Positions 1 through 18,312 of a stretch of 20,000 bases of DNA are shown one piece after another. This DNA is from an uncultured virus (IMG/VR IMGVR_UViG_3300031140_000597). Its lineage: Duplodnaviria; Heunggongvirae; Uroviricota; Caudoviricetes. Below the pieces are notes generated by a model. It was given only the letters and a program-made list of their open reading frames with translations. It did not search any database and was not told where the DNA came from. Position numbers and translations under genes: made by a program. The stretch covers positions 55,391 through 75,390 of the IMG/VR virus record IMGVR_UViG_3300031140_000597, one strand, 5' to 3'. Numbering within the stretch: the stretch's first letter is position 1; each line of letters opens with the position of its first letter.

Positions 1-1
1 A

Positions 2-76
2 CTCAACGAAGGATTCAGATTTAATAATCCAAACGCAAAAGACGAATGCGGTTGTGGCGAAAGTTTCACTGTATAA
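2..76 (+). CDS. iscA: Fe-S cluster assembly A-type carrier (IscA/HesB family), 3' end only
   Basis: Frame 2 reads LNEGFRFNNPNAKDECGCGESFTV*, containing the C-terminal NPNA..CGCGESF signature of IscA/SufA/ErpA. Confidence 0.9.
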   Translation, partial: LNEGFRFNNPNAKDECGCGESFTV

Positions 77-94
77 TATTTTATTAAATAAGTG

Positions 95-123
95 TTGACA
101 AGAGAAGTATAATGCGTTACAAT
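95..123 (+). promoter_or_regulatory. sigma70-type promoter P1
   Basis: TTGACA (95-100), 17 bp spacer, TACAAT (118-123). Confidence 0.75.
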
Positions 124-207
124 AGCACAACGTTTTGAGAAAGACATAAAGTTTTTTGATAAATAAATAAGAAGTTTATGCTGACGTATTTCAAGTCACT
201 AATTTAG

Positions 208-265
208 AAATAGTTTAAAATAGTTTAAAATAGTAGTTGACAATAGTTAATAAGTTTGATATAAT
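208..265 (+). promoter_or_regulatory. sigma70 consensus promoter P2 with phased A-tract/UP-like repeats
   Basis: TTGACA (237-242), 17 bp, TGnTATAAT (260-265); preceded by AAATAGT repeated at a 10-bp period (208-234). Confidence 0.85.
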
Positions 266-275
266 AGTAGAACAA

Positions 276-304
276 GTTGAGAGATCAACACGCTCTTTAA
301 AAAT
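276..304 (+). promoter_or_regulatory. rrn-like antitermination leader (boxB-like hairpin + boxA)
   Basis: GTTGA-GAGA-TCAAC hairpin (276-289) followed by GCTCTTTAAAAAT (292-304), close to the rrn boxA consensus TGCTCTTTAACA. Confidence 0.6.
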
Positions 305-317
305 AGTTTGTTTTAAT

Positions 318-399
318 ATGTATTATTGTTGATGAAAGTAGGGCTTGATGTTGGAAGTAGAACCATTAAGGTGTCTGACGATAGTTAACAATAATATAT
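318..399 (+). ncRNA. putative structured ncRNA (element C), irregular hairpin
   Basis: 15-bp terminal stem 318-332/385-399; inner stem CTTGATG/CATTAAG; shares the 3' ACGATAGTTAA motif with element B. Confidence 0.5.
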
Positions 400-422
400 T
401 TTAAAATGAATTAAAATAGTTA

Positions 423-451
423 TTGACATTGTTATGAAACTTTGTTATACT
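423..451 (+). promoter_or_regulatory. sigma70-type promoter P3
   Basis: TTGACA (423-428), 17 bp, TGnTATACT (446-451). Confidence 0.75.
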
Positions 452-462
452 ATTAAAGTGTT

Positions 463-616
463 CTTTTGTATACACATTAGGTAGATACTGATTTTAGTAG
501 GTATGGTGATTCGTGCTGAACGTTGAAGGGAATCGCTAAATGACAAGGGACTTGCTGTGTGGGATTAATCATCCCTGTCGTAGACAAGCGGTTGTTAAAT
601 AATGTGTATGCAAAAG
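463..616 (+). ncRNA. putative structured ncRNA (element A), paralogue of 628-770
   Basis: 17-bp closing stem 463-479/600-616; 67-nt core aligns without gaps to element B. Confidence 0.7.
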
Positions 617-627
617 TGTATTTTAAT

Positions 628-770
628 ATATGCTATTGGGTAGAGCCAGATCGTAGTAAGCATAAGGGTGCGTGCTGAAATTTGAAGGGAATCGCTGAAC
701 GACAATAGGTTTAATGTATACAGACTAATCCCTGTATATTGGAACCAACGATAGTTAAACGATAGTATAT
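628..770 (+). ncRNA. putative structured ncRNA (element B), paralogue of 463-616
   Basis: 11-bp closing stem 628-638/760-770 with a different sequence from that of A; core 639-705 matches A at 51/67 positions by hand count. Confidence 0.7.
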
Positions 771-799
771 TTTAAAGTTTATTTTAAATAAAGTTTAAT

Positions 800-875
800 T
801 CCTGAATAGCTCAGTTGGTAGAGCAGTAGACTGTTAATCTATTTGTCGTTGGTTCGAGCCCAACTTCAGGAGCCA
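800..875 (+). tRNA. tRNA-Asn(GUU)
   Basis: Full cloverleaf, acceptor TCCTGAA/TTCAGGA, anticodon loop CT-GTT-AA, TTCGA T-loop, encoded CCA. Confidence 0.96.
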
Positions 876-1049: not shown

Positions 1050-1055
1050 TTTTTT

Positions 1056-1191
1056 AAAGTAGTATTAAGTAGTTACCCTAGCGGCTCATAAGAGAGAGTC
1101 GGTTCATTGCATATAGTTACAGTTATGTGTAGTCAGCGAAATGTGCATCTGTAAGTGCATGTAGACTCGGCTAACTTCTTAATATTATTTT
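1056..1191 (+). ncRNA. putative ncRNA (element D), three-way junction with complementary loops
   Basis: 14-bp closing stem, GAGTC/GACTC stem, two hairpins whose loops TTACAG (1117-1122) and CTGTAA (1149-1154) are exact complements. Confidence 0.7.
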
Positions 1192-1192
1192 T

Positions 1193-1901: not shown

Positions 1902-1947
1902 CTATAATTTATTTTTGTATAAGATTTGTCTTATACATTTACAGAAA

Positions 1948-2040
1948 TCGCTTCTGTTATCGTGACATACAACGACAACGATAGCGTTACACTCGTAACA
2001 AATACATGTTAATTATGCGAGTTGACGATAACAGAGGCGG
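1948..2040 (+). ncRNA. putative structured ncRNA (element F)
   Basis: 16-bp closing stem 1948-1963/2025-2040, 27-nt A/C-rich asymmetric loop, inner stem ACTCGTA/TGCGAGT. Confidence 0.6.
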
Positions 2041-2048
2041 CGCTATTC

Positions 2049-2253: not shown

Positions 2254-2985
2254 ATGAATAGTTTGTTTGAATACACAGAAGCAGTAGAAGAGTGCAAAGG
2301 TTCGTTAGAAGGTGATGGTGATAATAAGTTATTTACCGAAGCAGAGCGTGTTCTATCTACTGAAATAAACAACGAAGAAAAGATATTAAAGCATCCGATA
2401 TTACATGAAGCGTTTGATCGCATCGTAGAGCAACATGTACCAAATCAATCAACTGCATTTTTATCATTATGCACTGCTACTCGTCCTTATAACAAGAGCA
2501 AGAAGTGGAAAGGATTCATCAACAAGTTTGGTGGTAAGGTAGATATGATAGTTGTATCTAATGGTGGTATGATGCCACAACAGTTTTGGAAAAGTTGGCC
2601 CTATTTGAATTACGATGGGGGTGATCATTATGATGTTAAAATGTATCAAGATATTATGCATGAACGATTATTGAAGTTTTTTAGGAAGCACAATTACAGT
2701 AATGTTATTGCAAACTTTAGACCTAATTTAATCAATCATCAACCAGCACATGATGCGCTTTCTATTCTGAAAGAAGAAGGTAGCATTGGTGATTATATTG
2801 TAATGCCTAATCAGGAGTTGTATGATAAGGCACAGTCATTAGGTTGGCGACCACCACAAGGTCAAGGTGATATGTTCCCTGATTTAACCAATACGATACT
2901 GAGTGCATTAACTGCTCAAGTGGAAGAATTCGGGTATGATGAAGATTTATTTACTGTTCATGAAAAATTAAAGTACAATAAGTAG
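2254..2985 (+). CDS. DUF5591-like protein (domain found in archaeosine synthase ArcS/TgtA2)
   Basis: 243 aa; FLSLCTATRPYNKSKKW resembles the C-S/T-x-x-K/R-P-Y-x-x-S motif, followed by VVSNGG..P and PY.NYD. Confidence 0.55.
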   Translation: MNSLFEYTEAVEECKGSLEGDGDNKLFTEAERVLSTEINNEEKILKHPILHEAFDRIVEQHVPNQSTAFLSLCTATRPYNKSKKWKGFINKFGGKVDMIVVSNGGMMPQQFWKSWPYLNYDGGDHYDVKMYQDIMHERLLKFFRKHNYSNVIANFRPNLINHQPAHDALSILKEEGSIGDYIVMPNQELYDKAQSLGWRPPQGQGDMFPDLTNTILSALTAQVEEFGYDEDLFTVHEKLKYNK

Positions 2986-2998
2986 GTTATTTTTATAG

Positions 2999-3012
2999 TA
3001 TAAATAATACTA
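2999..3012 (+). promoter_or_regulatory. T4-like late promoter
   Basis: Exact TATAAATA (2999-3006) followed by N4-TA, upstream of the hydrolase gene. Confidence 0.55.
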
Positions 3013-3030
3013 TAGACAGGGAGAAAGATA

Positions 3031-3705
3031 TTGTTCAAGGGAATATATAATCTTTTTAAGCAGAAAGAAGAGCCTATAGCAGAGATGATTGAAATCCCTG
3101 TTAAAAACCCAGAATTACCTCATATTGTGTTTATACACGGTGCTGGATGTAGTCATCGCAGTTGGAATTATATATTAGCAAAACTTAACCCTACCCGTTA
3201 CACTATGTTAGAGTATTCGGTAGATGATAAGTTTTATACTAATCTAAATAAACTGTCGACTATTGTTGGTCAAATACATGATAGGGATTTATTTATAATA
3301 TCTCATTCTATGGGTGGTATATATGCATTGCATTTATGTCAGAGTTTTAGTCATAGAGTAATTGGTTCAATATCTATCGCGACTCCGTTTGCGGGATCGA
3401 GAACAGCAGATTTTGTAAAATATGTATATCCATCGTATATATTGTTTCGAGATGTTGGAGTAAGAAGTGCGCCTATTATGAGGTGTCATGATATTACAAT
3501 CAATGTACCTTGGACACAGATAGTTACGACAGATGGGCATGTACCGTGGCATAAGGGTGAGAACGATGGTGTTGTGACGGTAGAAAGTCAGCGTCATCGT
3601 AAAGATATAGATTATGTAGAAATACATGTAACCCACCATGAAGCGTTGGTGAGTGATGAAGCATTAGATATTATAAAAGAAAAATTAGATATCAAAAACG
3701 CTTGA
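3031..3705 (+). CDS. alpha/beta hydrolase (esterase/lipase-like)
   Basis: HGAG oxyanion motif, SHSMGG nucleophile elbow, TPFAGS, NDGVV acid, C-terminal His; TTG start with GGGAG RBS. Confidence 0.85.
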   Translation: MFKGIYNLFKQKEEPIAEMIEIPVKNPELPHIVFIHGAGCSHRSWNYILAKLNPTRYTMLEYSVDDKFYTNLNKLSTIVGQIHDRDLFIISHSMGGIYALHLCQSFSHRVIGSISIATPFAGSRTADFVKYVYPSYILFRDVGVRSAPIMRCHDITINVPWTQIVTTDGHVPWHKGENDGVVTVESQRHRKDIDYVEIHVTHHEALVSDEALDIIKEKLDIKNA

Positions 3706-3730
3706 CAGAACACGTTACATAGTGTATAAT
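3702..3730 (+). promoter_or_regulatory. sigma70 consensus promoter for tRNA-Ala/Ala/Thr
   Basis: TTGACA (3702-3707), 17 bp, TATAAT (3725-3730). Confidence 0.85.
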
Positions 3731-3779
3731 AATTTATTAGATAAATAAAGTAGTAAGTATGAAGTGGTTACATAATCGT

Positions 3780-3855
3780 GGGGATATAGCTCAGTTGGGA
3801 GAGCGACTGCCTTGCACGCAGTAGGTCGTAGGTTCGATCCCTATTATCTCCACCA
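3780..3855 (+). tRNA. tRNA-Ala(UGC), copy 1
   Basis: Cloverleaf, loop CT-TGC-AC, G3:U70 Ala identity pair, CCA. Confidence 0.97.
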
Positions 3856-3904
3856 TTATGTGACTATTAGTCTAATAAATAAAGTAGCAAGTATGAAGTA
3901 CAAT

Positions 3905-3980
3905 GGGGATATAGCTCAGTTGGGAGAGCGACTGCCTTGCACGCAGTAGGTCGTAGGTTCGATCCCTATTATCTCCACCA
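3905..3980 (+). tRNA. tRNA-Ala(UGC), copy 2 (identical to copy 1)
   Basis: Same 76-nt sequence as 3780-3855. Confidence 0.97.
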
Positions 3981-4015
3981 TTTTAAAATTAAAGAGATAT
4001 CAAATTTCTTTAAAA

Positions 4016-4091
<76 letters not shown>

Positions 4092-4099
4092 AATAATCA

Positions 4100-4125
4100 G
4101 ACTCCCTTCGGGGAGTTTTTTGTTT
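4100..4125 (+). terminator. rho-independent terminator ending the tRNA cluster
   Basis: GACTCCC-TTCG-GGGAGTT hairpin (cUUCGg loop) followed by a T-tract. Confidence 0.9.
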
Positions 4126-4167
4126 CTGCAATAAATACAATTATGAAAATTTATAAGAATAATCCGA

Positions 4168-5193
4168 ATGTATGACATTAAAACAATAGAATTGGAATTA
4201 GCAACTGTGTGCAATGCATATTGTCCCGTATGTATTCGCTATGATGCAAGAGACGAAGGTTTATTTTTAAACCCCAAAGCCAATCTTAATCAATTGATAG
4301 ATCTAGATACTATCGACAAATGTTTTAAATCAGACAAAATACCCGATGACGTAGAAGTGAGTCTAGTTGGTACTTCTGGCGATCCACTTGCTCATCCTAA
4401 AATTTTAGATATTATCAAATTGATATTACATCATAAGTCGCATGCAACATTTAATATCCATACTAATGGTGGACTTAGATCAACAAAATTATTCGCTGAA
4501 CTTGCACATATATTAGGAGATGGCGATAGGTTTTGTTTTAGTTTAGATGGGTTAGCAGATACCAACCATATATATCGAATAGGGGTTGACTTCAAGAAAG
4601 TAATATCTAATATGACTGCATTCATTGAAGCGGGCGGCACACCAATTTGGCAATTTGTGATATTTGATTGGAACAAACATCAGATAGAAGAATGTAGAAA
4701 ATATGCATTTGATTTAGGCTGTAGAGCATTTGAGTCTCGCGAAAATGTCAATCCCGGGCTTATAGATGTCGCCATCGCATCTGCAAATAAGCAGATAGTT
4801 AATGCTGTATCTCCATCGTTTTATTCTGATAGTATGGTCGAGTCTGATGATTATGATTACATAGACGATGCGTGTATTCAAGAACAAGGAATATTCATGG
4901 CACCAGATGGTAAAGTATATCCTTGTTGTATGTTCTATGCGGAACGTGCGGGTCCAGGTTCTACATTGGTGTACGATACCATGTATAAGAAGTTTGGATA
5001 TGATTGGAATGATTTAACTATATATTCACTAGATCAGATTCTAGATCATGCTTGGTGGGATGAACTACATACCAGCATAGTTAAAAGTCCATGTGTTACA
5101 TGCATCAATAACTGTGGTGCTGTTCGTGATGAACGTAGTAATTCTGACATAAACGAAAAGGCATATCAAAATATTTCAAGGACATTAATATGA
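4168..5193 (+). CDS. radical SAM protein with SPASM/twitch domain
   Basis: CNAYCPVC (CxxxCxxC), GTSGDP, HTNG, SLDG; C-terminal C..G.VYPCC..CVTCINNC. Confidence 0.9.
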   Translation: MYDIKTIELELATVCNAYCPVCIRYDARDEGLFLNPKANLNQLIDLDTIDKCFKSDKIPDDVEVSLVGTSGDPLAHPKILDIIKLILHHKSHATFNIHTNGGLRSTKLFAELAHILGDGDRFCFSLDGLADTNHIYRIGVDFKKVISNMTAFIEAGGTPIWQFVIFDWNKHQIEECRKYAFDLGCRAFESRENVNPGLIDVAIASANKQIVNAVSPSFYSDSMVESDDYDYIDDACIQEQGIFMAPDGKVYPCCMFYAERAGPGSTLVYDTMYKKFGYDWNDLTIYSLDQILDHAWWDELHTSIVKSPCVTCINNCGAVRDERSNSDINEKAYQNISRTLI

Positions 5194-5540
5194 CAGTACC
5201 ATTATTCAATAAGACATTCAAATTATTTGTATTTAAGGGTGATAACGAAGTAAGTATATCACTTAGAATCACCGATAAATGTTGTAGATCATTCATGATG
5301 CCATTAGAAGATTTCACGTATATCATTAACAATTGGCGCACAGGTGTTGATGGTAGAAACATAGATGGTAATCGTTGGTGGTGGGAATACAGAGATTGTG
5401 GTCCGAGACCAGAAATAGCCCCAGCAGATTTTGTATCTATTAGTGTACATGGATGGAACTGGCGCGTTACGGTAGCAGAGATGGAAGAGTTAGAAAGTGC
5501 ATTTAATTTTCAGTTAATCAATAAAAATCATTGGGATTAA
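5190..5540 (+). CDS. hypothetical protein
   Basis: 116-aa ORF, ATGA overlap with the upstream stop. Confidence 0.7.
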   Translation: MTVPLFNKTFKLFVFKGDNEVSISLRITDKCCRSFMMPLEDFTYIINNWRTGVDGRNIDGNRWWWEYRDCGPRPEIAPADFVSISVHGWNWRVTVAEMEELESAFNFQLINKNHWD

Positions 5541-5552
5541 CTAAATAAGTGT

Positions 5553-6044
5553 ATGGGAAAAATAATAAAATCAATTAGTCTAACACAACTCGTATTTACG
5601 TTGATATTTTTATCTATGTTTACGGCTATTGGCTTAAATATATATCTATATGTGAAGTTACATCAAGCATGGCCATTAGAACATTTCAATGGTAATATAG
5701 AAACTCCTGTTGATATATCGGTTGATAAAACGATTGTTGCATCTGGTACATTTAATCGTCGTGTGGCATGTGAAATGTATAATTTCAGTTTGCAGTTACG
5801 AAATGTAGACACGAGAGATATAATTATATTAAATCCCGAACATTTAGCAACGGCACCTACCACTACGATGTCACCAGCGAAAGATATAGATGTTAATTTT
5901 TCGCTACATATTCCAAGTAATCTATATGTTGGATTTTGGACACCTACATTCACTGGGCACTATATCTGTAAAAGCGGTATGTTCACACAAAATAAGACTC
6001 AGCGCATCGTCGTTGATTCATTCGAAGTAATCAAATCTAAATAA
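5553..6044 (+). CDS. hypothetical membrane-anchored protein
   Basis: 163 aa, single N-terminal hydrophobic helix then a beta-rich domain with two Cys. Confidence 0.7.
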   Translation: MGKIIKSISLTQLVFTLIFLSMFTAIGLNIYLYVKLHQAWPLEHFNGNIETPVDISVDKTIVASGTFNRRVACEMYNFSLQLRNVDTRDIIILNPEHLATAPTTTMSPAKDIDVNFSLHIPSNLYVGFWTPTFTGHYICKSGMFTQNKTQRIVVDSFEVIKSK

Positions 6045-6061
6045 TCAAAAATAGGTAATAT

Positions 6062-6925
6062 ATGAACTTATTAAAAAATATTGAATTGAAAGAAATTCAA
6101 TCTACTGGTAGACCAGTGATTTTTAAGCACCCATCATTAATCGCCAACTTTCCTGACAGACTAGACAAAGCAAAAACACTATTTGATCAGATGACAGTAC
6201 CAATGTGTGAAAAATATAATAAATTTGATTTTGAAGATGAACATTTCAGAACAGATCATTGGGAAGACGAAGAAGTACCTGATAAGATCTACGCACATCG
6301 CTATGGTGGTCCTGCATTCAGTTATGACATAGATACTATGGTAGGTCCTCAAGATTGGGAAGGTGATGGCGATGCTACCAAAGTAGGCGATCATGTGCTA
6401 AGACGTAAGATTTATCTGTATGATTGGACACGCGAGCGTATGAAAGATGGCAACATACAACCAACCGCAGAAATGGAATATTTCTTGGACTTGCTTGATG
6501 TAGTTAAACCTATATTAGAACATTATAACAAAGAATGTTTATCAGATCAAACAGATAAAGTTAAGTTTTATCTTATTAAGATGATGTTGATCGAGTATAG
6601 CACACCGTGTGCGACAGATGATAATGTAGTAGAGCATAGGAAATTTAACACTGATCGTTTCGGTCCGTCTCATTGCGATGAAGCATTGTTGGGATTGCAC
6701 GTTGGTGAGAGTATTAAAGAAATACAGACACGAAACCATGTTACTGGTGAATGGACTTATTTACCAGATAATGAGACATCACTTCTATTGTTTGGCGAAG
6801 ATGCTGCAAAGAGTGACTGGGACCCGACCTATCATCGTATGATTCACAATCCAAATGGTGGGTCATCAGATTCACGTTATGTGATTCTAATAGATTATCA
6901 AGCACGTTACAAAAATAATGATTAA
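6062..6925 (+). CDS. 2OG-Fe(II) oxygenase-like protein
   Basis: HCD (HxD), distal H (YHRM) and R (SRYV), spaced as in IPNS-like dioxygenases. Confidence 0.6.
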   Translation: MNLLKNIELKEIQSTGRPVIFKHPSLIANFPDRLDKAKTLFDQMTVPMCEKYNKFDFEDEHFRTDHWEDEEVPDKIYAHRYGGPAFSYDIDTMVGPQDWEGDGDATKVGDHVLRRKIYLYDWTRERMKDGNIQPTAEMEYFLDLLDVVKPILEHYNKECLSDQTDKVKFYLIKMMLIEYSTPCATDDNVVEHRKFNTDRFGPSHCDEALLGLHVGESIKEIQTRNHVTGEWTYLPDNETSLLLFGEDAAKSDWDPTYHRMIHNPNGGSSDSRYVILIDYQARYKNND

Positions 6926-6928
6926 GTG

Positions 6929-6957
6929 TTGACAAACAGCCACTTAGTTGATATAAT
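6929..6957 (+). promoter_or_regulatory. sigma70 consensus promoter of clpP
   Basis: TTGACA (6929-6934), 17 bp, TGnTATAAT (6952-6957). Confidence 0.85.
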
Positions 6958-6989
6958 AGTTCATAACCTAAATCGGAGTAGTAAATAAT

Positions 6990-7604
6990 ATGTTAGTACC
7001 AACAGTAGTAGAATCAACAGGACGTGGAGAACGCGCTTATGATATTTATAGTCGCTTGCTTCGTGATCGGATTATTATGCTCAATGGAGAAGTAAACGAT
7101 CACACCGCAAACCTAATCGTAGCACAGATGTTATTTTTGGAATCAGAAAATCCATCAGAAGACATCAATTTTTACATCAATAGTGGCGGTGGTTCTGTCA
7201 CCGCTGGACTTAGTATCTATGATACTATGCAGTATATCAATTCACCAGTGTCTACCATCGTAATGGGACAAGCGTGTTCAATGGGATCATTGTTATCGCA
7301 AGCGGGCGCTCCAGGAAAGCGATTTGTTTTACCTAACAGTCGTACTATGATTCATCGTGTTAGTTCGGGCACTCAGGGTACACGTGGTAGTATTCATGTA
7401 CAAGAACTTGAGTTTGAAGATGCAAAGCGACATATGGATGAGTCAGTTAATTTGAACAATCGTCTTACGCAGTTGTATGTAGATCATAGCAGCAAAGGAA
7501 AATCATTTGATGAGTTTTATGCTACTATGAAGCACGACACTTTCATGTCAGCACCAGAAGCAGTTGAATTTGGTCTTGCTGATAAAGTGATTGCTAAGAT
7601 CTAG
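6990..7604 (+). CDS. clpP: ATP-dependent Clp protease proteolytic subunit
   Basis: [31 protein letters not shown], catalytic Ser (ACSMG), His (MIH), Asp (HDTFM); GGAG RBS. Confidence 0.97.
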
Positions 7605-7612
7605 ATTGATCA

Positions 7613-7641
7613 GAAGTTGGACAGTCAGTTCAACTTCATTT
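7613..7641 (+). terminator. possible terminator hairpin after clpP
   Basis: 9-bp stem GAAGTTGGA/TTCAACTTC; weak T-tract. Confidence 0.35.
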
Positions 7642-7710
7642 AGTCCCGCCAATGATAAATATGTATATCAGTCATATTATTGTGACATTAATATAAAAGG
7701 AATTTAATCA

Positions 7711-8559
7711 ATGACGTACAGACACGACAACAAAGATCCCAATATGAGTGGATCACAAAAAGCATTAAAATATGACGTAGATGGTGAACCATCATTGCGC
7801 GTAAGCATTAAGGAGACTTCTAATTTGGTTACGCCTGTTGGCTCAAACAAGCCATACTTGCTAGAAGTAGCACAGGGATTAATTCCAGGATACGGTTGCA
7901 ACCACAAGTTTGGTGCAGTGCCCTCTATGAGTAATAACACCCAAGGTAGTGTATGGGATGTTTCTGACACAGTATACCCATTTAACGCATTTGGTGCTGG
8001 TAGTGTTATCAACGTTGAACGTACTAATGCAGCAGATGTAGGTAGTGTAATTAGAATGCAAGGCTTAGATGTAAACTTTAATTTCATCGAAGAAGACATC
8101 CCACTTAATGCGAGAGACCAAGTAGGCACACTGGTATTCATTAGATTAAACAGAGCGTTCATGGTTACTGATGGTGGATCAAACATTGGCGACATTAATT
8201 TTGAAATTGGGGTACCAGGCGGTGTAACGATTGCTCGTATAACAGAAGGTTATGGACAGACGCTTATGGCAGTGTACACAGTGCCTGCAGGCGTAACAGC
8301 ATATTTACTTAATATTTCTGCTACTGCATCAGATGACGCAGATGCCACAATCTCACTATTAAAACGTGAGGCTTCTAGTGACGTTTTTAGAATAATGACA
8401 ACATTTGAATTACAAAAACGTGGCGGCGGATTTACACAAGAGTTCCCTTGTGCACTAACGATCGCAGAAATGACAGACATTGATTTGAGAGTTATTTCAC
8501 GTGCACGTGACAAGCGTTTCACGGGAACATTTGATATGCTATTAGTAGATAATGTATAA
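7711..8559 (+). CDS. hypothetical protein, possibly virion structural
   Basis: 282 aa, beta-rich and G/T/V-rich, GQTLMAVYTVPAG motif; late-promoter-like ATAAATA at 7655 and AAGGA RBS. Confidence 0.7.
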   Translation: MTYRHDNKDPNMSGSQKALKYDVDGEPSLRVSIKETSNLVTPVGSNKPYLLEVAQGLIPGYGCNHKFGAVPSMSNNTQGSVWDVSDTVYPFNAFGAGSVINVERTNAADVGSVIRMQGLDVNFNFIEEDIPLNARDQVGTLVFIRLNRAFMVTDGGSNIGDINFEIGVPGGVTIARITEGYGQTLMAVYTVPAGVTAYLLNISATASDDADATISLLKREASSDVFRIMTTFELQKRGGGFTQEFPCALTIAEMTDIDLRVISRARDKRFTGTFDMLLVDNV

Positions 8560-8567
8560 ATAAGTAT

Positions 8568-9254
8568 ATGAGATTACATAATTTATTTGAAAACAACAAA
8601 CCAATATTAGATGAGGGTCCAAAAGATCCTCATATCTTTAAATCAGTATTTCTTGCGGGCGGACCAGGTTCTGGTAAAAGTTTTGTAGCAGGTAAATTAC
8701 TTAAAGGCGGCGGTCTTAAAGTAGTTAATTCTGATGATATTTACGAATACTTAATGAAACAGCAGAACTTAGAAATGGACCCAGAGACTATTTTTAGTCC
8801 TCAAGGTCAAGCAATTCGTGATAAAGCGAAAGGTCTAACAGGCATCCGTCAAGGCGGATTTCTAGATGGTCGTTTAGGTCTTGTTGTAGACGGAACTGGT
8901 AAAGATACTGGTAAAGTAAAAAAGGAAAGTGATAAACTACGTGATTTAGGTTATGATACGATGATGGTATTCGTTAATACTAGTTTAGAAGTAGCACAAG
9001 CGCGAAATCAAGCACGATCTAGAAAACTTGCACCAGAAGTAGTTGAGGCGATGTGGAATAAAGTTCAACAGAACATAATGAAATTCCAGCAAATCTTTGG
9101 CTCGGCGAACTTCCATGTTATTGATAATTCTGGTGGATTAGAAGACCCAGATAGAGCAGAGAATTTCGATACCGTATATAAAGAAATACAAAAGTTTATT
9201 AATACACCACCATCAAGTCATATTGCTAAAAAATGGCTAGATAATAATAAATAA
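8568..9254 (+). CDS. P-loop kinase (AAA_33/zeta-toxin-like)
   Basis: Walker A GGPGSGKS, NSDD, VVDGTG, RNQAR.R lid motif. Confidence 0.85.
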   Translation: MRLHNLFENNKPILDEGPKDPHIFKSVFLAGGPGSGKSFVAGKLLKGGGLKVVNSDDIYEYLMKQQNLEMDPETIFSPQGQAIRDKAKGLTGIRQGGFLDGRLGLVVDGTGKDTGKVKKESDKLRDLGYDTMMVFVNTSLEVAQARNQARSRKLAPEVVEAMWNKVQQNIMKFQQIFGSANFHVIDNSGGLEDPDRAENFDTVYKEIQKFINTPPSSHIAKKWLDNNK

Positions 9255-9287
9255 TTCTATAACATATTAAACCATCTTATAACTAAG

Positions 9288-9326
9288 AACTCATGTATTG
9301 CTAAATATAGATATATGGGTTTTTTT
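9288..9326 (+). terminator. terminator-like hairpin with a late-promoter motif in its loop
   Basis: 11-bp stem AACTCATGTAT/ATATATGGGTT plus T-tract; loop contains CTAAATA. Confidence 0.45.
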
Positions 9327-9358
9327 ATGCCTGTAACATAATAAGAGGAACACATATC

Positions 9359-9703
9359 ATGTATACATATCGTGTTAAATTAGTAAGAGTAATAGACGGT
9401 GACACCATTGATGCAGAAATCGATCTAGGCTTCAATGTGGTGATGAGACAGCGAATTAGATTGTACGGTATAGCGACACCAGCGACTCACACAAAAGATT
9501 TAGAAGAAAAAGAGCGTGGTCTAGCATCAAAGCAGCGCCTGACCGAACTATTACCAAAAGAGTTTACTGTTGAAACAATATTAAACAAGCGTGGAAAGAT
9601 TGGTAGAATAATGGGCATCGTGTATGTAGAAGAATATGATACGTCTATCAATATCAATGATGTAATGGTTGAAGAAGGTCACGCAATTAGGTATAATAAG
9701 TAG
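9359..9703 (+). CDS. thermonuclease (SNase-like) family protein
   Basis: VIDGDT, RIRLYGI.TP, GKIGR.MG, IN..MV.EG.A motifs; GAGGA RBS. Confidence 0.85.
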   Translation: MYTYRVKLVRVIDGDTIDAEIDLGFNVVMRQRIRLYGIATPATHTKDLEEKERGLASKQRLTELLPKEFTVETILNKRGKIGRIMGIVYVEEYDTSININDVMVEEGHAIRYNK

Positions 9704-9713
9704 AGGATAAATT

Positions 9714-11270
9714 ATGAGATATTTTGGTATTTGGACAGTTTTTGTAGCATTAACTATTAGCGTAGTAGCAGCGTATTATTCAATCATTGGACTAGTTGCT
9801 ATATTCGCCGCATCAATGGTTCCTGTCATAATCATGGGCAGTGTATTAGAAGTAGGCAAAATAACAACCGCAGTATGGTTACATAAGTACTGGGATAAAG
9901 CAACATTCTTGATGAAATCTTATTTAACTATTGCTGTACTGTTACTCATGTTTATTACTAGTATGGGTATTTTTGGTTTCCTATCTAAAGCACATATTGA
10001 ACAGACAGCAATGGCTGGTGAAGGTGTAGCACAATTGGAACGTGTGGAAGCAGATATTGCACGAAATCAATCAGTTATCGCTCGTGCAGATGATAAGATG
10101 ATCAAACTAGAATCATCAGATGAAACAATAGATACCAATATTCAAACAAAGATTGCGACAGAAGAAAATCGTATCGCAGGGAAGTCACAGAGATTACAAA
10201 CAGCAATAGCAGAACAAACAGCAGCGATAGAGTTAGCAGTTGCACCGTATATGACACAGCAACAAGCAGCAGACAATGCACTCGCATTAATGAATGGGTT
10301 TGTTCAGAATAATGAAATTAAGAAGATACAAGGATTAATTGGCGAAGTACAAGATGGTTCATATGGAACAAAGACTGCCAATGGAGTGAAGGAATATAGA
10401 AATAACCTACTTGATGAACGTGCGACAGCATTGTCTATTGTCAATGAATTACGAGCAGATACCAGAACTGAAATCGCTAGACTACGTGCAAATTTTGAAC
10501 AACAGGTAGAATCATCGAATGCACTGATTAGTCGAATGACAACTGAACTTAGCGTAGTTGAACGTGTAGACACAGAAGCAGACATAACTGCATTGCAATT
10601 GAAAATTAAGAATTCAGAAGAATCACTTGACAAACTCTATGAAACAAAGTATACTATAGAGACTAAAAGCAGAAAGTTAGAAGCCGAAGTAGGACCTGTT
10701 AAATACATAGCAGCATTAATATATGGTGATGATCCTACTAAAGACACATTGGAAGATGCTGTACGATGGATTATTATGATACTTGTAGTTGTGTTTGATC
10801 CGTTAGCCGTTGTATTAGTAATTGCGGGCATTTCTATTCTTGAGCAAAAGAAAGTGAACGTAGTACGCGATGATCAGGCTGAATACGATAGAGCAAGAGT
10901 ACAGCGTATGGTTGATAATACACCTCATAAAGAAGTGGTGGTTGAGCCAATTGAAGTTGCTGAAAAAGAAACTTCAAAAGTAGAAACAGAATTAGAGCGT
11001 GAGATTCGTGAATTAAATGAACAACGTGAATTAAATGAATCAAGTCGTAGCATACAAAAAGAAGCAAATCAGCAAGCATTATTGCTTGTTAAAGATATAT
11101 CAAATCGCATGATTCAAAGCGGAAGCAATATCACATGTATCAGTGATGTAATAGCATCAGACGATACAGGAACCCTGAAGCAGTTATTAGAGGGTGCTGA
11201 TAAAGACACATTGAATGATGTACAAACTATTATAGCAAACACAATTAATCAAATACAGGAAAGTAAATGA
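9714..11270 (+). CDS. membrane protein with long coiled coil, function unknown
   Basis: Three N-terminal hydrophobic helices, long heptad-rich region, then a further helix (VVFDPLAV). Confidence 0.75.
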   Translation: MRYFGIWTVFVALTISVVAAYYSIIGLVAIFAASMVPVIIMGSVLEVGKITTAVWLHKYWDKATFLMKSYLTIAVLLLMFITSMGIFGFLSKAHIEQTAMAGEGVAQLERVEADIARNQSVIARADDKMIKLESSDETIDTNIQTKIATEENRIAGKSQRLQTAIAEQTAAIELAVAPYMTQQQAADNALALMNGFVQNNEIKKIQGLIGEVQDGSYGTKTANGVKEYRNNLLDERATALSIVNELRADTRTEIARLRANFEQQVESSNALISRMTTELSVVERVDTEADITALQLKIKNSEESLDKLYETKYTIETKSRKLEAEVGPVKYIAALIYGDDPTKDTLEDAVRWIIMILVVVFDPLAVVLVIAGISILEQKKVNVVRDDQAEYDRARVQRMVDNTPHKEVVVEPIEVAEKETSKVETELEREIRELNEQRELNESSRSIQKEANQQALLLVKDISNRMIQSGSNITCISDVIASDDTGTLKQLLEGADKDTLNDVQTIIANTINQIQESK

Positions 11271-11710
11271 AGCAAGACAACAGTAGTTATACAATAACAA
11301 ATCCTGATCTATTTTTAACAAATGATGGGATTTCTGTATTAATCACGAGTACTAACAAAGAATTCATTGACGAAGTAAAATTAATAGTAGAGCATCACAT
11401 TGAACATAGTATTGTGTTTAATGTGCAGCCTTCTAGCACCACCGAAACAGGTGTTCCCTGGATGTGGTATGTGAGTCGTGCAGTTGACATTATGTTTGTT
11501 GATTTAGACACATGTGCTTGGGTAGACATTTGTACTGCATTGACAAAAGAACAGGATGATAATCATGTTGTTGTGTTTTTTAGTGACAGGAACAAAAAAC
11601 GCGATGCTATTAAATTGATAAATGCAACGAGTAAGTATATTATACTGAAAGATATTAAAGAGATCAGTGCATACATGGAAACACATGTTCAACTGTCTGC
11701 TCCTTTATGA
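11267..11710 (+). CDS. hypothetical protein
   Basis: 147-aa ORF with ATGA overlaps on both sides. Confidence 0.75.
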   Translation: MKQDNSSYTITNPDLFLTNDGISVLITSTNKEFIDEVKLIVEHHIEHSIVFNVQPSSTTETGVPWMWYVSRAVDIMFVDLDTCAWVDICTALTKEQDDNHVVVFFSDRNKKRDAIKLINATSKYIILKDIKEISAYMETHVQLSAPL

Positions 11711-12936
11711 CAGAAATGTTAAAATGCGCATTTTGTCATAAGACACAAAAGCAAGTTTCTAAGTTACTTGCTGGCATAGACGAGCACATTTATATTTGTA
11801 ATAAATGTGTTCATTTGTCGCACAGCATTTTAGAGAAAGAAGATAAAACAAAAACACTCAAAGATAAGAAACGTAAGTTACGTGATATTTTTGATACTGT
11901 CCCACCTAAACAAGTCCATGAATATTTAAACGAACATGTGATTGGTCAAGAAAAAGTTAAGAAAGGAATTAGTGTAGCAATATACAATCATTGTAAGCGA
12001 ATCTTTAATGACACCACTGTAAAAGTACAAAAATCAAATGTATTACTATTGGGTCCTACAGGTGTTGGTAAAACACTTATTGCACAAACGCTAGCAAGTT
12101 CAATGGATGTGCCATTCGTCATTACAGATGCAACTACGATTACTGAAAGTGGTTATGCTGGAGATGATGCAGAAGTATTGATACATAAGTTATTCCAAAA
12201 TTCTGATTATGATATTGCACGAACCGAGATTGGTATCATCTACGTAGATGAGATAGACAAGAAAGCCAAGCGTAATGACATGGTAAGTTTAAGTCGTGAT
12301 GTATCAGGCGAAGGTGTTCAACAAAGTTTACTGAAACTCATGGAAGGCACCACCATCGCAGTACCTAATAAACATGATAGATCTCCTGAAAAAATAGATA
12401 TAAATACAGAGAACATCTTATTCATTGTGGGCGGTGCTTTTATTGGATTAGAGAAAGTAGTTGAGCAGCGTCTAGGTAAATCAAAAATAGGATTTACTGG
12501 AAAAATGGCAAGCAAAGATTATAATTGGGAAGATGAACTTGAAACGAGTGATCTAGTTCAATATGGTCTAATACCAGAATTCTTAGGAAGATTACCATCA
12601 GTTAATGTATTACATGAATTATCTAAAGATGATTTGGTGCGTGTGTTGACTGAACCGAAAAATAGTATTGTAAAGCAATATCAAGCATTATTTGAATTAG
12701 ATAATGTTAGTTTAGAATTTAAGCCATCTGCATTAAGAGCAATCGCAGAGACTTCTATTAAGCAAGATCTAGGTGCAAGGGGATTACGCAAAATAATCGA
12801 CAATGCACTCATTGATACACAATATGAATTACCCGATCTTGTAAGACAGGGCGTTCAGAAGATTATTATTAGTGAAGAAACTATAACTAGAGGAACAACA
12901 CCACACATGATCAAAGGATCCATAAGTGAAAAATAA
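11707..12936 (+). CDS. clpX: ATP-dependent Clp protease ATP-binding subunit ClpX
   Basis: C4 zinc finger (CAFC..CNKC), GPTGVGKT, YVDEIDK, RDVSGEGVQQ, IGF loop, PEFLGRLP, GARGLR. Confidence 0.97.
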   Translation: MTEMLKCAFCHKTQKQVSKLLAGIDEHIYICNKCVHLSHSILEKEDKTKTLKDKKRKLRDIFDTVPPKQVHEYLNEHVIGQEKVKKGISVAIYNHCKRIFNDTTVKVQKSNVLLLGPTGVGKTLIAQTLASSMDVPFVITDATTITESGYAGDDAEVLIHKLFQNSDYDIARTEIGIIYVDEIDKKAKRNDMVSLSRDVSGEGVQQSLLKLMEGTTIAVPNKHDRSPEKIDINTENILFIVGGAFIGLEKVVEQRLGKSKIGFTGKMASKDYNWEDELETSDLVQYGLIPEFLGRLPSVNVLHELSKDDLVRVLTEPKNSIVKQYQALFELDNVSLEFKPSALRAIAETSIKQDLGARGLRKIIDNALIDTQYELPDLVRQGVQKIIISEETITRGTTPHMIKGSISEK

Positions 12937-13432
12937 AAAACCAATGTTGATGTTTAATCAATTCATAACATTTCGTGAAGTACGTGTCAATTTTGAAGAC
13001 GGCGAAAGTAAAGTACTAAATACAGTAGAGGCATTATCTATCGCAGAAGGTAGAGGACTGGATTTGATTGTTATCAATGAAATTGCAGTTCCACCAGTAT
13101 GTAAGATTGCTGATAAAAATAAGTTTTTGTATGAACAGAAACAAAAACAAAAAGACACTGCAAAAAAGGCAAGAGCCAGTACAGTAGAACATAAAGAAAT
13201 CCGTATGGGTTTGAATATCGAAGAAAATGATATTACTGTTAAATCTAATAAGATTAAAACATTATTGGAAAAGAAATGCAGAGTTACTATTACCGTGACC
13301 TTGAAGGGTCGTGAACGAAGTAAGCAACATATAGCACGTGAACTAATCCAATCTATTGCAGATCGATTAGGTGTTGAGTTGGAATTATTCGGTGCAAGTG
13401 GTAATAGAGTTAGTGCGAAAATAAAAGGTTAA
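12926..13432 (+). CDS. infC: translation initiation factor IF-3
   Basis: EAL..A...GLDLI.I......PPVCKI.D..KF.YE, KEIR....I...D...K, GRE; GTG start with AAGGA RBS. Confidence 0.93.
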   Translation: MKNKKPMLMFNQFITFREVRVNFEDGESKVLNTVEALSIAEGRGLDLIVINEIAVPPVCKIADKNKFLYEQKQKQKDTAKKARASTVEHKEIRMGLNIEENDITVKSNKIKTLLEKKCRVTITVTLKGRERSKQHIARELIQSIADRLGVELELFGASGNRVSAKIKG

Positions 13433-13434
13433 GA

Positions 13435-13677
13435 ATGGCATATAATAGAAATGAGCGTCAAGGTTTGACGGTTGCAGTATACAATGATAACATCGAACAA
13501 GCGTTGCGTAAATTTAAGAAGAAGATGACCACAGACGGTAAACTTCAAGAAGTAAAGGATCGTGCAGAATTTACACCAAAATTTGAAAAGCGTAAAGCAT
13601 CACAAGCAGCAGCAAAGGCACGATTGCGCAAGCAATTGGCACAAGAGAATAATGTTACTAAAAAGCGTTTATTCTAA
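13435..13677 (+). CDS. rpsU: 30S ribosomal protein bS21
   Basis: V.V...NIEQALRKFKKK....G.L.EVK.R..F.P..EKRK; small and basic. Confidence 0.9.
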   Translation: MAYNRNERQGLTVAVYNDNIEQALRKFKKKMTTDGKLQEVKDRAEFTPKFEKRKASQAAAKARLRKQLAQENNVTKKRLF

Positions 13678-13704
13678 ATAGACAACTGGTAACTTTACAC
13701 TAAC

Positions 13705-13729
13705 AAAGGAGCATTAAATGCTCCTTTTT
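13705..13729 (+). terminator. rho-independent terminator after rpsU
   Basis: AAAGGAGCAT-TAA-ATGCTCCTTT followed by further Ts. Confidence 0.85.
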
Positions 13730-13731
13730 GC

Positions 13732-13760
13732 TTGCTTTATTATTAATTCCGTAGTATAAT
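13732..13760 (+). promoter_or_regulatory. sigma70-type promoter of clpS
   Basis: TTGCTT (13732-13737), 17 bp, TATAAT (13755-13760). Confidence 0.7.
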
Positions 13761-13787
13761 ATATGTTAACCAATAAAGGAAATACCA

Positions 13788-14096
13788 ATGACACAATCAT
13801 CAGCATCAACATCATCCGAACTAACACACACACGACTACGTGGCCCATCAAAGTATAATGTTATCTTTTTAAATGATGACGCAACCTCTATGGAATTTGT
13901 TATTTCGGTACTAACTGCTATCTTTCATAAAGATGCAACAGAAGCACAAGAAGTAGCAACACACATTCACGAGAAAGGGAAAGCAATCGCTGGAACCTAT
14001 ATCTACGAAGTTGCAGAACAAAAAGTAACCGAGACTGTATCTAATGCCCGAACCGCAGGGTTTCCACTGTCATTGACATTGGAAGAAGTTGAATAA
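13788..14096 (+). CDS. clpS: Clp protease adaptor ClpS
   Basis: P..Y.V.FLNDD.T.MEFV..VL...F, IH..GKA..G.Y..EVAE.K, FPL. Confidence 0.95.
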   Translation: MTQSSASTSSELTHTRLRGPSKYNVIFLNDDATSMEFVISVLTAIFHKDATEAQEVATHIHEKGKAIAGTYIYEVAEQKVTETVSNARTAGFPLSLTLEEVE

Positions 14097-14121
14097 AAGA
14101 ATAATACAATAGGAAACAATC

Positions 14122-14580
14122 ATGACCACTATGACTTCGATCTCTGAAATTGTCTCATTTTATAATATACTAATAGGACCTGTGACAACGTTTGAAGGGT
14201 TGCAAGGACGCATGTTATCAAAAATTGAACAGTCTGATGATGAAATTAAATTTTACTTAACTGACACTAATTATGTGCGTATGTACCACCAGCAAGATTG
14301 CTGTGAGTCAGTATATATCGAGGATATCGTAGGTGACTTAGACGACTTGGTAGGCACTCAATTATTGTTAGTTGAGGAAGTGCAAAACTATGAACCATCT
14401 AATGAAACAACGTATGACTCAACCGAAGATCATTATGAACCAGAGAGTGAAACTTGGACATATTACCGTTTTAACACTGAAAAAGGTGATGTATCTATTC
14501 GTTGGTGTGGAAGCAGTAATGGTTATTACTCAGAAAGTGTAGATATTGAAGTTATCGACGAAAAAACACTTGACAAGTAA
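14122..14580 (+). CDS. hypothetical phage protein
   Basis: Acidic 152-aa ORF with HQQDCCESVYIEDI.GDL and SNGYYSE motifs; exact start uncertain. Confidence 0.75.
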   Translation: MTTMTSISEIVSFYNILIGPVTTFEGLQGRMLSKIEQSDDEIKFYLTDTNYVRMYHQQDCCESVYIEDIVGDLDDLVGTQLLLVEEVQNYEPSNETTYDSTEDHYEPESETWTYYRFNTEKGDVSIRWCGSSNGYYSESVDIEVIDEKTLDK

Positions 14581-14598
14581 GAAGCCTTGGTATATAAT
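14570..14598 (+). promoter_or_regulatory. sigma70 consensus (early) promoter
   Basis: TTGACA (14570-14575), 17 bp, TATAAT (14593-14598). Confidence 0.85.
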
Positions 14599-14632
14599 AG
14601 TTATATAAGTTAATTAAAGCAAGGAAGTTATT

Positions 14633-14998
14633 ATGGGTATGTTAGTCAGTGTTTATCGTAGTAATAAATTAGTCGATTGTACAAATGGCGGAGTATCTGC
14701 TAAGTTAGACCGATTCATCGTAGCGAATGTTGAAGGACCGTTTATGTCAGAACCGACTGCAACAGATGTGTTGGTTCTTGTACAAGGTCCGTTAGATAGT
14801 GCACGTTTAATTCCAGCAGTATATAATGACTCAACTGATGCGTGGGAACCTATTAATAAGGCACTAGGTGAATGGGTAATGTTTGGTGGCAATTACGCTG
14901 GTACATCTGATTCACGATTCTGTGAGGCTACTAGTTTTCTCACTGGTGGTACACGACTTGATATTGTTAAAGTATTTGATAGGATTGAGGCTTTTTAA
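14633..14998 (+). CDS. hypothetical phage protein
   Basis: 121 aa with DCTNGGVS and MFGGNY..TSDSRF motifs; AAGGA RBS. Confidence 0.8.
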   Translation: MGMLVSVYRSNKLVDCTNGGVSAKLDRFIVANVEGPFMSEPTATDVLVLVQGPLDSARLIPAVYNDSTDAWEPINKALGEWVMFGGNYAGTSDSRFCEATSFLTGGTRLDIVKVFDRIEAF

Positions 14999-15219
14999 TG
15001 GAACAATCATTTAAGAAAGCAGTATGTTATGCATTTCATGGCGAATCTGATGACGCTATTCTTGAAAGCGGATTCGTTGGCGATTTGATAGAAGTACATG
15101 AGTACGCACTAATGCTTGCTGAAAAACTTTATGAAACAGATTATGATTTGCTTGAAGTATACGACTTTGTATATGCATGGTCTAAAAACGACGACATTAA
15201 ATTTCCTTGGGAAACGTAA
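14998..15219 (+). CDS. hypothetical protein
   Basis: 73-aa acidic ORF, TAATG overlap, GAGG RBS. Confidence 0.7.
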   Translation: MEQSFKKAVCYAFHGESDDAILESGFVGDLIEVHEYALMLAEKLYETDYDLLEVYDFVYAWSKNDDIKFPWET

Positions 15220-15236
15220 TCAATTACATTAAACCC

Positions 15237-15265
15237 TTGACAAGTAAGGCTTATTGTTATATAAT
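15237..15265 (+). promoter_or_regulatory. sigma70 consensus (early) promoter
   Basis: TTGACA (15237-15242), 17 bp, TATAAT (15260-15265); shares CTTGACAAGTAAG and the downstream AAGGAAGTTAT RBS with the promoter at 14570. Confidence 0.85.
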
Positions 15266-15296
15266 ATTTATATAATTTAATCAAAAGGAAGTTATC

Positions 15297-15440
15297 ATGG
15301 AATTATCAAACGCAGATCTTTTATCATATGTAATGGTTTCAGCAATTCTTACGTATGCACTGTTTTGGATGCCTTATGTTATCATCAAGTCGATGTCGGC
15401 AAAGTGGAAACAAATCACTCAAGGAAAAGTAACAGAATAA
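15297..15440 (+). CDS. small membrane protein (47 aa)
   Basis: MELSNADLLSYVMVSAILTYALFWMPYVIIKSMSAKWKQITQGKVTE*; AAGGA RBS; directly after a promoter; below the ORF-track cutoff. Confidence 0.75.
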   Translation: MELSNADLLSYVMVSAILTYALFWMPYVIIKSMSAKWKQITQGKVTE

Positions 15441-15468
15441 TGTACATTTTAACTCAAGGAATCATTTA

Positions 15469-16719: not shown

Positions 16720-16745
16720 ATTAATCAATAATATTGGAGAGTAAC

Positions 16746-16862: not shown

Positions 16863-16863
16863 T

Positions 16864-17461: not shown

Positions 17462-17465
17462 TACT

Positions 17466-18302: not shown

Positions 18303-18312
18303 GGAATAACAT

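Follow-up and report, generated by a model that had tools for sequence, protein, structure and literature searches.

We have identified two tandem paralogous RNA units, designated c1 and c2, in a 20,000-nucleotide (nt) stretch of DNA from an uncultured virus (hereafter, the window), which comprises bases 55391-75390 of the 75.4-kb IMG/VR record IMGVR_UViG_3300031140_000597 (G000; judged 21% complete). We observed directly that the two units are related in sequence, that they share a fold kept by compensatory changes, that this fold belongs to the plus strand, that they stand in the context of a transfer RNA (tRNA) operon, and that their distribution is narrow. c1 and c2 are proposed to be uncatalogued structured RNAs made together with tRNAs, of the same kind as RNAs C and D of bacteriophage T4, a reading to which we assign a probability of about 0.5. 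The pair is carried by a large marine T4-like phage of about 370 kb. A second contig of the same phage (G001; 192 kb, 52% complete, with about 48% of the genome missing) carries genes for a T4-type major capsid protein Gp23, portal protein Gp20, baseplate proteins and a prohead protease, as judged by Pfam scan.

In the model that we favor, e0 (a truncated paralogue), c1 and c2 would constitute the leader of a strongly promoted tRNA operon, with c1 and c2 as tandem paralogous plus-strand RNAs of about 150 nt each. Each would adopt a Y fold, in which a closing stem joins the 5' and 3' ends and carries a 5' arm with an invariant base and internal loop, as well as a 3' arm that is freely replaceable. 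The units may be co-transcribed with the tRNAs from the sigma-70-type promoter at 423-451 and released by cleavage at these long stems, probably of the RNase III type known from ribosomal RNA (rRNA) operons, where the enzyme uses long flank-to-flank stems around the payload. They would then persist as small stable RNAs like T4 RNAs C and D, with the invariant junction and internal loop presenting a putative surface that is read by a protein.

Sequence relationship and fold of the paralogous units

The cores of c1 (480-546) and c2 (639-705), which a first-pass annotation made from the letters of the window had set side by side, align without gaps with 51 identities in 67 positions (binomial probability ~1e-16, or ~2e-8 when all offsets in 20 kb are allowed). 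The same paralogous pair was recovered by a repeat search as D3 (71 nt at 76%). Divergence between the units is very uneven, the core being 76% identical and the 3' arms hardly alignable. The closing stems of 17 and 11 base pairs (bp) described in the first-pass annotation pair fully (Table 1), and the smaller elements it had listed were all found, namely a small hairpin (GGTAT or AGCAT with GTGCT), TAATC in the loop of the 3' hairpin, TCCCTGT and GTTAAA. The closing stems, which it describes as swapped, are not unrelated; they align column by column with three pairs changed on both sides.

Both closing stems extend beyond the core units. That of c1 reaches 455-479/600-624, about 25 bp with one mismatch (repeat I1, with 29-nt arms that are 83% complementary), and that of c2 reaches outward to about 616-638/760-782, about 17 bp. 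Because the outer 5' strand of c2 overlaps the outer 3' strand of c1 at 616-624, the two extensions compete with each other. A G follows the 5' strand of each unit (480 and 639) and is paired at the base of the 5' arm in the curated fold model. The folding energy of c1 is -48.8 kcal/mol (z -3.86, with 0/200 shuffles as good) and that of c2 is -42.7 kcal/mol (z -3.03, with 1/200 shuffles as good). In a comparison of strands, the plus strand gave -48.1 and -36.9 kcal/mol and the minus strand -31.3 and -22.5 kcal/mol, a gap of 14-17 kcal/mol; the plus strand is the more stable because of its many G-U pairs, as would be expected if the RNA is the plus strand. The closing stem of e0 (I2) has 27-nt arms that are 81% complementary, and e0 aligns to the 3' half of both c1 and c2, while remaining undetected by the covariance model of the c1/c2 family. 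No open reading frame (ORF) of at least 40 amino acids (aa) overlaps the region, and what the ORFs of 20-39 aa have in common is limited to letters of the conserved core. Small proteins were rejected as products of the region, the two minus-strand ORFs sharing MSFSDSLQ.SAR only over the conserved DNA core before diverging completely, as was a leader peptide, the 7-codon ATG frame of c1 being missing from c2.

The comparative set consisted of five alleles from two paralogues of one phage lineage, drawn from the window and from metagenome variants; four diverged variants (L025, L029, L036 and L045) came from one metagenome-collection scan, and the covariance model was built from five alleles. 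Applied to the five-allele alignment, RNAalifold returned three elements: a closing stem, a 3' arm and an extended 5' arm with a 7-bp hairpin at its tip. In a curated 28-pair structure, 93.4% of cells pair across the five alleles. Six pairs are changed on both sides (three in the closing stem, two in the apical hairpin and one in the lower 5' arm), a number reached in 2/500 column shuffles, and a control in which partners were slid by 1-3 columns gave 21-48% pairing with 0-1 double-changed pairs. The structural inference of the first-pass annotation, a plus-strand RNA with stems kept through compensatory change and with invariant junction and loop bases, is supported in the five alleles; stem covariation among homologues, which had been named beforehand as the test that could refute it, is present in the few homologues available.

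The c1 copies of L025, L036 and L045 match the window across the closing stem and 3' arm except for a single T-to-G change in the 3' arm, and have three patches of the 5' arm replaced. The apical hairpin of L025 c1 is still 7/7 paired, with two double changes, despite these three substituted patches, and GGTAGA, TAGTA, TGAA, TTG, AATCGCT and GACAA are untouched in this allele. The invariant bases of the set, most of which are unpaired, comprise the GGTAGA of the junction, the TAGTA and TGAA that flank the apical hairpin, AATCGCT, GACAA and GTTAAA. The 3' arm occurs in three versions, all of them hairpins of unrelated sequence with ATC in the loop. The apical hairpin of c2 in L025, L029, L036 and L045 carries the loop sequence found in c1 of the window, and in L036 the 3' arm of c2 is replaced by a different hairpin. 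The region is a mosaic of exchangeable RNA modules.

Directly below the apical hairpin, AGUA stands opposite GAA in both units and is invariant in 5/5 alleles. Judged by its letters, AGUA/GAA next to a helix is likely an S-turn (sarcin-ricin/loop-E) module, and S-turn modules are a frequent site of protein or tertiary contact. AGUA/GAA is listed among canonical sarcin-ricin motif sequences (PMC1865062). A loop-loop contact between GAT of the apical loop and ATC of the 3'-arm loop was considered and rejected; by eye, 3-4 complementary bases occur in 5/5 alleles, which is too short against chance. An extra stem-closed cassette of about 165 nt follows c2 in two variants (L025:516-684 and L036:516-669), between positions 776 and 777 of the window. 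It is unrelated in sequence to c1 and c2, and its base stem is kept while its inner hairpin is swapped between L025 and L036.

Table 1. Features of the operon leader, with positions in the window and promoter-like sites scored against a sigma-70-type consensus
Feature	Position	Strand	Remarks
Promoter-like site 1	95..123	+	TTGACA, 17 nt, TACAAT; 11/12
Promoter-like site 2	237..265	+	12/12, TG extension
Leader hairpin and boxA-like element	277..303	+	GTTGA-GAGA-TCAAC, then CGCTCTTTAAAAA, resembling rrn boxA
e0, truncated paralogue	304..413	+	closing stem and 3'-arm-like hairpin, without 5' arm
Promoter-like site 3	423..451	+	TTGACA, 17 nt, TATACT; 11/12, TG
c1 whole unit with extended closing stem	455..624	+	core unit 463-616; covariance model 143.9 bits
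c1 closing stem, 5' strand	463..479	+	17/17 pairs with 600-616
c1 5' arm	480..537	+	invariant GGTAGA 480-485, AGTA 496-499, GAA 518-520, AATCGCT 531-537
c1 apical hairpin	500-517	+	7 bp around TGAT
c1 3' arm	541..598	+	TGACAA/TTGTTA base, inner stems, GGGAT-TAATC-ATCCC tip
c1 closing stem, 3' strand	600..616	+	supported by fold and allele pairing
c2 whole unit with extended closing stem	616..782	+	core unit 626-770; covariance model 148.7 bits
c2 closing stem	628-638 with 760-770	+	11 bp
c2 5' arm	639..696	+	GGTAGA 640-645, AGTA 655-658, GAA 677-679, AATCGCT 690-696
c2 apical hairpin	659-676	+	
c2 3' arm	700..757	+	GGTTT/GAACC, then GTATACAG/CTGTATAT around loop ACTAATCC
tRNA-Asn	800..875	+	first of 8 downstream tRNAs on the same strand

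Operon context and known counterparts

c1 and c2 lie 30-340 nt upstream of tRNA-Asn in an 18-tRNA region in which all 18 are on the plus strand, and no terminator-like site was found before 4099-4118. The layout is that of a stable-RNA operon. The predicted start of promoter-like site 3 (~457-459) coincides with the first bases of the extended c1 stem, and the site is conserved in 4/4 metagenome variants, including L029, which is devoid of c1. Together with an AT-rich upstream stretch, the promoter is tripled in tandem as a 60-nt repeat (D2; 68-127, 210-269 and 396-455), each copy of which stands before a different RNA module. The boxA-like stretch between the second and third sites reads CGCTCTTTAAAAA, where the E. 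coli rrnB leader has TGCTCTTTAACAA. An inverted copy of it (I5; 18 nt, 89% complementary) is present at 1555-1572, just past tRNA-Arg and 1.25 kb downstream; pairing between the two stretches could enclose e0, c1, c2 and five tRNAs in the manner of an rRNA processing stem. The arrangement thus far resembles rRNA operon leaders in its tandem strong promoters, its hairpin and boxA-like CGCTCTTTAAAAA, its payload within long flank stems and its distal inverted boxA copy. It is unlike rRNA operons in that the payloads are 110-120-nt RNAs and tRNAs, and in that the promoter nearest to c1 is downstream of the boxA-like element.

Transcription of c1 and c2 is likely. Contigs of two seawater RNA libraries cover 228-1054, which includes e0, c1, c2 and the following tRNA, and carry a 166-nt insertion where the variants have the extra cassette. 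RNA-run cover was scant or nil in window bins 81-160 and 1121-1200, from which nothing is concluded, as these are contigs only. Other spacers of the array are also stem-closed and contain multiple hairpins (window 1050-1192, z -6.0; window 1902-2048, z -6.2; genome 54524-54639, z -3.9). Unlike most stem-closed cassettes, c1 and c2 are clear paralogues with an invariant core. In other strains, a different sequence of 95 letters stands in place of the unit at 1054-1189, and 1663-1739 is missing.

Knowledge of non-tRNA small RNAs in phage tRNA clusters goes back to T4, the tRNA region of which holds two small RNAs whose roles are given as still unknown (PMC3014915). According to the T4 annotation, RNAC and RNAD (species 1 and 2; genes rnaC and rnaD) are adjacent, co-oriented non-tRNA RNAs of about 120-140 nt within the tRNA cluster. 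c1 and c2 are likewise non-tRNA units in a tRNA region, encoded on the plus strand of a phage with T4-type structural genes. They are unlike RNAC and RNAD in having different folds and no sequence similarity to them by blastn: rnaC folds with a tRNA-like T-arm (GGGTTCGAATCCC), whereas c1 and c2 have no T-arm, and rnaD barely beats shuffles in stability (z -0.83). c1 and c2 are furthermore paralogous to each other and located at the head of their cluster, whereas RNAC and RNAD are found at the tail of theirs.

Two other groups of RNAs invite comparison. In Cellulophaga phage phi14:2, transcription of two long intergenic regions exceeds that of most genes, and the RNAs stay abundant, with functions given as undetermined (10.1101/2020.03.07.982082). 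c1 and c2 are like these early intergenic RNAs in being self-closing folded modules between genes, and are unrelated to them in sequence. The Y RNA YrlA (RF02553) measures about 100-150 nt and has its ends paired in a long stem, like c1 and c2, and some YrlA RNAs are phage-encoded. YrlA-type Y RNAs of Salmonella form a tandem pair. The sole match to the YrlA model scored 20.7 bits against a gathering score of 69 and lies at 745-855, where it rests on the neighboring tRNA-Asn; a further difference from YrlA is that c1 and c2 carry no tRNA-like T-arm. No member of the Ro/TROVE or RtcB families was found in Pfam scans of 229 ORFs, with about half of the genome missing.

Distribution of the family and weighing of the readings

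Near-identical DNA was listed in two seawater RNA libraries, as well as in marine metagenome runs from 19 studies, which may be a single campaign; only four runs (X10, X15, X16 and X17, possibly of one campaign) were examined in detail. In G000 and G001 alike, the covariance model detects c1 and c2, with scores of 144-149 bits. It had no match in 1.2 Mb made up of 78 loci that surround ClpP homologues with 69-79% identity; tRNAs are present in 12 of the loci. Among 16 records of capsid relatives there were two weak matches, both of which were rejected (the better one, L276, scores 15.5 bits, has no tRNA nearby and is coding-like); these records are uninformative either way because the five that were checked hold no tRNAs. 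Exact-pattern scans of viral contigs returned, among the matches listed, only three near-identical contigs of the same phage and chance matches. Two candidates from the viral scans (L004 and L007) were rejected as coding by eye, and 5/8 loci in one scan and 112/113 listed in another had no match beyond the pattern itself. None of 17 stretches from a genome-collection scan was real, the best (L058) reaching 17.9 bits by nhmmer with no covariance-model match, and five of 24 stretches from the metagenome-collection scan were real. Searches by neighboring genes gave, for IscA, three identical contigs and one locus that is not syntenic and has no tRNAs (L014), and, for DUF5591, identical contigs only. 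Against 50,697 phage records, including T4, blastn matched only the promoter stretch, with nothing in c1 or c2. At the gathering score, only tRNAs match Rfam 15 in the window, the upstream 7.4 kb and four variant loci, and at E up to 10 nothing was found in 463-744 except a 12.5-bit chance match.

Several of our results weigh against the reading of c1 and c2 as T4-type stable RNAs that bind a protein. The c1/c2 family is young or confined to one lineage, a narrowness also apparent in whole records of ClpP relatives, where the covariance model matched 0/26, including four of 321-354 kb with a completeness of 90% or more. Among syntenic relatives, the nearest (L280; ClpP 79%) has a promoter and a 66-aa ORF before tRNA-Asn and no such RNA. 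At least c1 is dispensable in nature. L029 is without c1 exactly, its promoter being joined to c2 at the 7-nt AAAGTGT that is the start of both units, just as an unequal crossover of tandem paralogues should leave it. The RNA-library contigs give neither strand nor ends, and neighboring protein genes are at similar depth, so that DNA carry-over is possible. The covariation statistics are weak, supportive rather than decisive, because they come from five related sequences and a structure derived from those same sequences. The lower 5'-arm helix (GGT(A)GAT with ATCGCT) shows next to no covariation, with 5/9 pairs invariant and three that have unpaired cells; a competing register exists in c1 alleles, in which TGATT pairs with AATCG in the minimum free energy structure; and one 3'-arm substitution in L025 c1 breaks a pair. 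The S-turn assignment has a basis in sequence only. Finally, a gene for an RNA-binding partner elsewhere in the genome, which the first-pass annotation had proposed to look for, was not recognized in Pfam scans of the 229 ORFs. Because copy number varies between strains and related phages are without the family, any role of c1 and c2 is considered accessory, not essential.

A trans-acting, protein-binding role is judged about as probable as not, and is placed ahead of a purely cis-acting one, because the invariant unpaired core is kept both across paralogues and in a heavily substituted allele. The cis-acting alternative, which we regard as possible and distinctly less probable, holds that c1 and c2 are leader or spacer modules able to fold on their own, which shield the 5' end, keep neighboring tRNAs apart during folding or provide RNase stems and are then degraded, with a shared core that stems from recent tandem duplication and gene conversion and has no function of its own. 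Much in the locus accords with it: other spacers of the array are also stem-closed and are swapped between strains, the c1 stem begins at the predicted transcription start, relatives are without the family, and copy number shifts in L029 by exactly one repeat unit, as unequal crossover at the AAAGTGT flanks would give. Filler of this kind needs stable stems only, yet here the stems change while the invariant positions are unpaired junction and internal-loop bases. This unpaired core is kept even in the heavily substituted c1 of L025, and between the paralogues the 76% identity of the core contrasts with 3' arms that can barely be aligned.

The remaining alternatives are all improbable to different degrees. 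It is unlikely that c1 and c2 are decoys for host defenses that attack tRNAs (an anticodon nuclease or an RNA-sensing protein), perhaps derived from tRNA fragments. The setting, a phage tRNA array that is polymorphic between strains, would suit such a decoy, and a viral tRNA reportedly neutralizes the PARIS defense (PMC11464382). c1 at 478-499 resembles the D-loop-to-anticodon part of the phage's own tRNA-Leu(UAG) (18/20 with one 2-nt gap; 3/500 shuffles), and window 175-193 resembles the 5' end of tRNA-Asp (D12; 84% over 19 nt). The likeness to tRNA-Leu fails correction for 18 tRNAs by 5 elements, c2 against tRNA-Asn is at chance (115/500 shuffles), ARAGORN and Rfam give no tRNA or tRNA-like call, there is no T-arm, and no defense system or target was identified. 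Quite improbable is mimicry of an rRNA site (5S or sarcin-ricin-type) that would bind a ribosomal protein or translation factor. It would fit the invariance of AGUA/GAA directly under a helix in 5/5 alleles and the phage's own IF3 and S21 genes, with ClpXPS also in the window. E. coli 5S 39-62 matches TGCTGAAC..TGAAGGGAATCGC at 17-18/23 (the L025 c2 score occurs in 4/300 shuffles), and 5S 63-80 matches GTAGAGCCAGATCGTAGT at 15/18 (10/300 shuffles). The order of these two 5S-like stretches is the reverse of that in 5S, where they are not pairing partners; the score was reached in 71/300 shuffles for c1 of the window and in 291/300 for L025 c1, making it chance for two of four alleles. The comparison was post hoc and used one 5S sequence, the GAAGGG part is missing from L025 c1, and the Rfam 5S model (RF00001) has no match at E up to 10. 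More doubtful still is a DNA-level element or untranscribed duplication, for example a repeat bound by a protein or a remnant of recombination. Transcription of c1 and c2 is indeed our deduction, and the surrounding 0.8 kb is rich in repeats (the promoter triplication D2 and AT-rich direct repeats). The compensatory changes keep RNA pairs, however, and the fold is strand-asymmetric through G-U pairs; consensus promoters lie 5' and co-oriented tRNAs 3' with no terminator, and RNA-library contigs span the units.

The least probable of the readings is the retron-type msr-msd RNA or retron decoy raised by the first-pass annotation. In layout, c1 and c2 recall msr-msd RNAs: inverted repeats flank each unit, a G stands just inside the 5' repeat, and the 3' hairpin is long. 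Retron RNAs adjoin their reverse transcriptase (RT). No RT is nearby here: PF00078 was not found in six frames of the 75-kb and 192-kb records (the latter 52% complete) by a search that was positive in 3/14 control genomes, no RT occurs among the 229 Pfam-scanned ORFs (25 + 204, with 9/236 G001 ORFs that span locus borders left out), there is no Rfam match, and c1 and c2 sit in the leader of a tRNA operon. The suggestion of a scaffold with variable guide segments was not supported either, the variable parts being the tips of both arms and the middle of the 5' arm, as is usual for structured RNA; no target complementarity of the variable segments was found. Of the first-pass annotation, the structural inference is supported and these two ideas are not. 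Other identities were rejected as well. Hammerhead and other ribozymes, riboswitches, 6S RNA, signal recognition particle RNA and transfer-messenger RNA have no Rfam match, and a switching P1 would need shorter closing stems. For a transposon like a miniature inverted-repeat transposable element, the terminal repeats differ per cassette and the apparent target duplication AAAGTGT is part of the paralogous flank. For a diversity-generating retroelement, differences between c1 and c2 are not limited to adenines (by eye) and no RT is present. Descent from tRNA-Asn was dismissed with similarity at chance level; the tRNA-Asp-like and tRNA-Leu-like fragments hint that the leader is partly built of tRNA debris.

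As for what stable RNAs of the proposed kind might do, a rather unlikely possibility is that c1 and c2 act in trans by copying an rRNA or tRNA surface and so capture a host ribosomal protein, translation factor or defense nuclease. If so, they would be an RNA-based takeover or counter-defense tool in a fast-recombining tRNA operon, in a phage with its own IF3 and S21. Independent of this, c1 and c2 are a clean case for study, with two paralogues and a truncated third, a defined Y fold and a short list of invariant unpaired bases, to which natural alleles with one copy missing or arms swapped add further value. Should a partner protein be found, it could provide a first function for the RNA class of phage tRNA clusters; if there is none, the case would show how self-folding RNA modules are gained and lost in the tRNA operon leaders of large phages.

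Gene content of the phage and neighboring tRNAs

According to Pfam, genes of the window include IF3, ribosomal protein S21, ClpP, ClpX, ClpS and several radical-SAM enzymes. Across window 2254-20000 and G001, the host-like genes comprise IF3, S21, two ClpP, ClpX, ClpS, IscA and NifU, together with a cysteine-desulfurase-like aminotransferase, SbmA/BacA, TctA and a tryptophan halogenase. There are at least nine radical-SAM proteins, two in the window and seven more on G001. GTP cyclohydrolase I, a PTPS/QueD-like protein and a DUF5591 protein in the same set suggest a possible 7-deazaguanine pathway. The gene 5' of the RNA leader depends on the strain: window 1-76 belongs to an IscA-type Fe-S protein, and L029:1-110 to a different gene. 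In L029 and in the RNA-library variant, the end of the upstream gene looks glutaredoxin-like by eye.

The tRNA array itself contains some unusual members. The variant tRNA-Asn (L025:696-767; also in L029, L036 and L045) has a very different D-arm region, GTGCCCCCAAGGTGGGGGAGC, and a very different T-arm, and scores 47.3 bits versus 69.6 in the window, with an identical anticodon arm. tRNA-like pieces that ARAGORN did not call include a T-arm-bearing stretch at 1690-1745 within the 1559-1823 spacer. Three stretches of L010 (5323-5396, 5938-6020 and 3652-3769) are tRNA-like; two of their Rfam matches, at 38.9 and 36.1 bits, exceed the gathering score, and the third (24.7 bits) falls short of it. 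Finally, two copies of tRNA-Ala(TGC), at 3780-3855 and 3905-3980 (70.1 bits each by Rfam), stand 125 nt apart behind a promoter at 3702-3730 that matches the consensus at 12/12.

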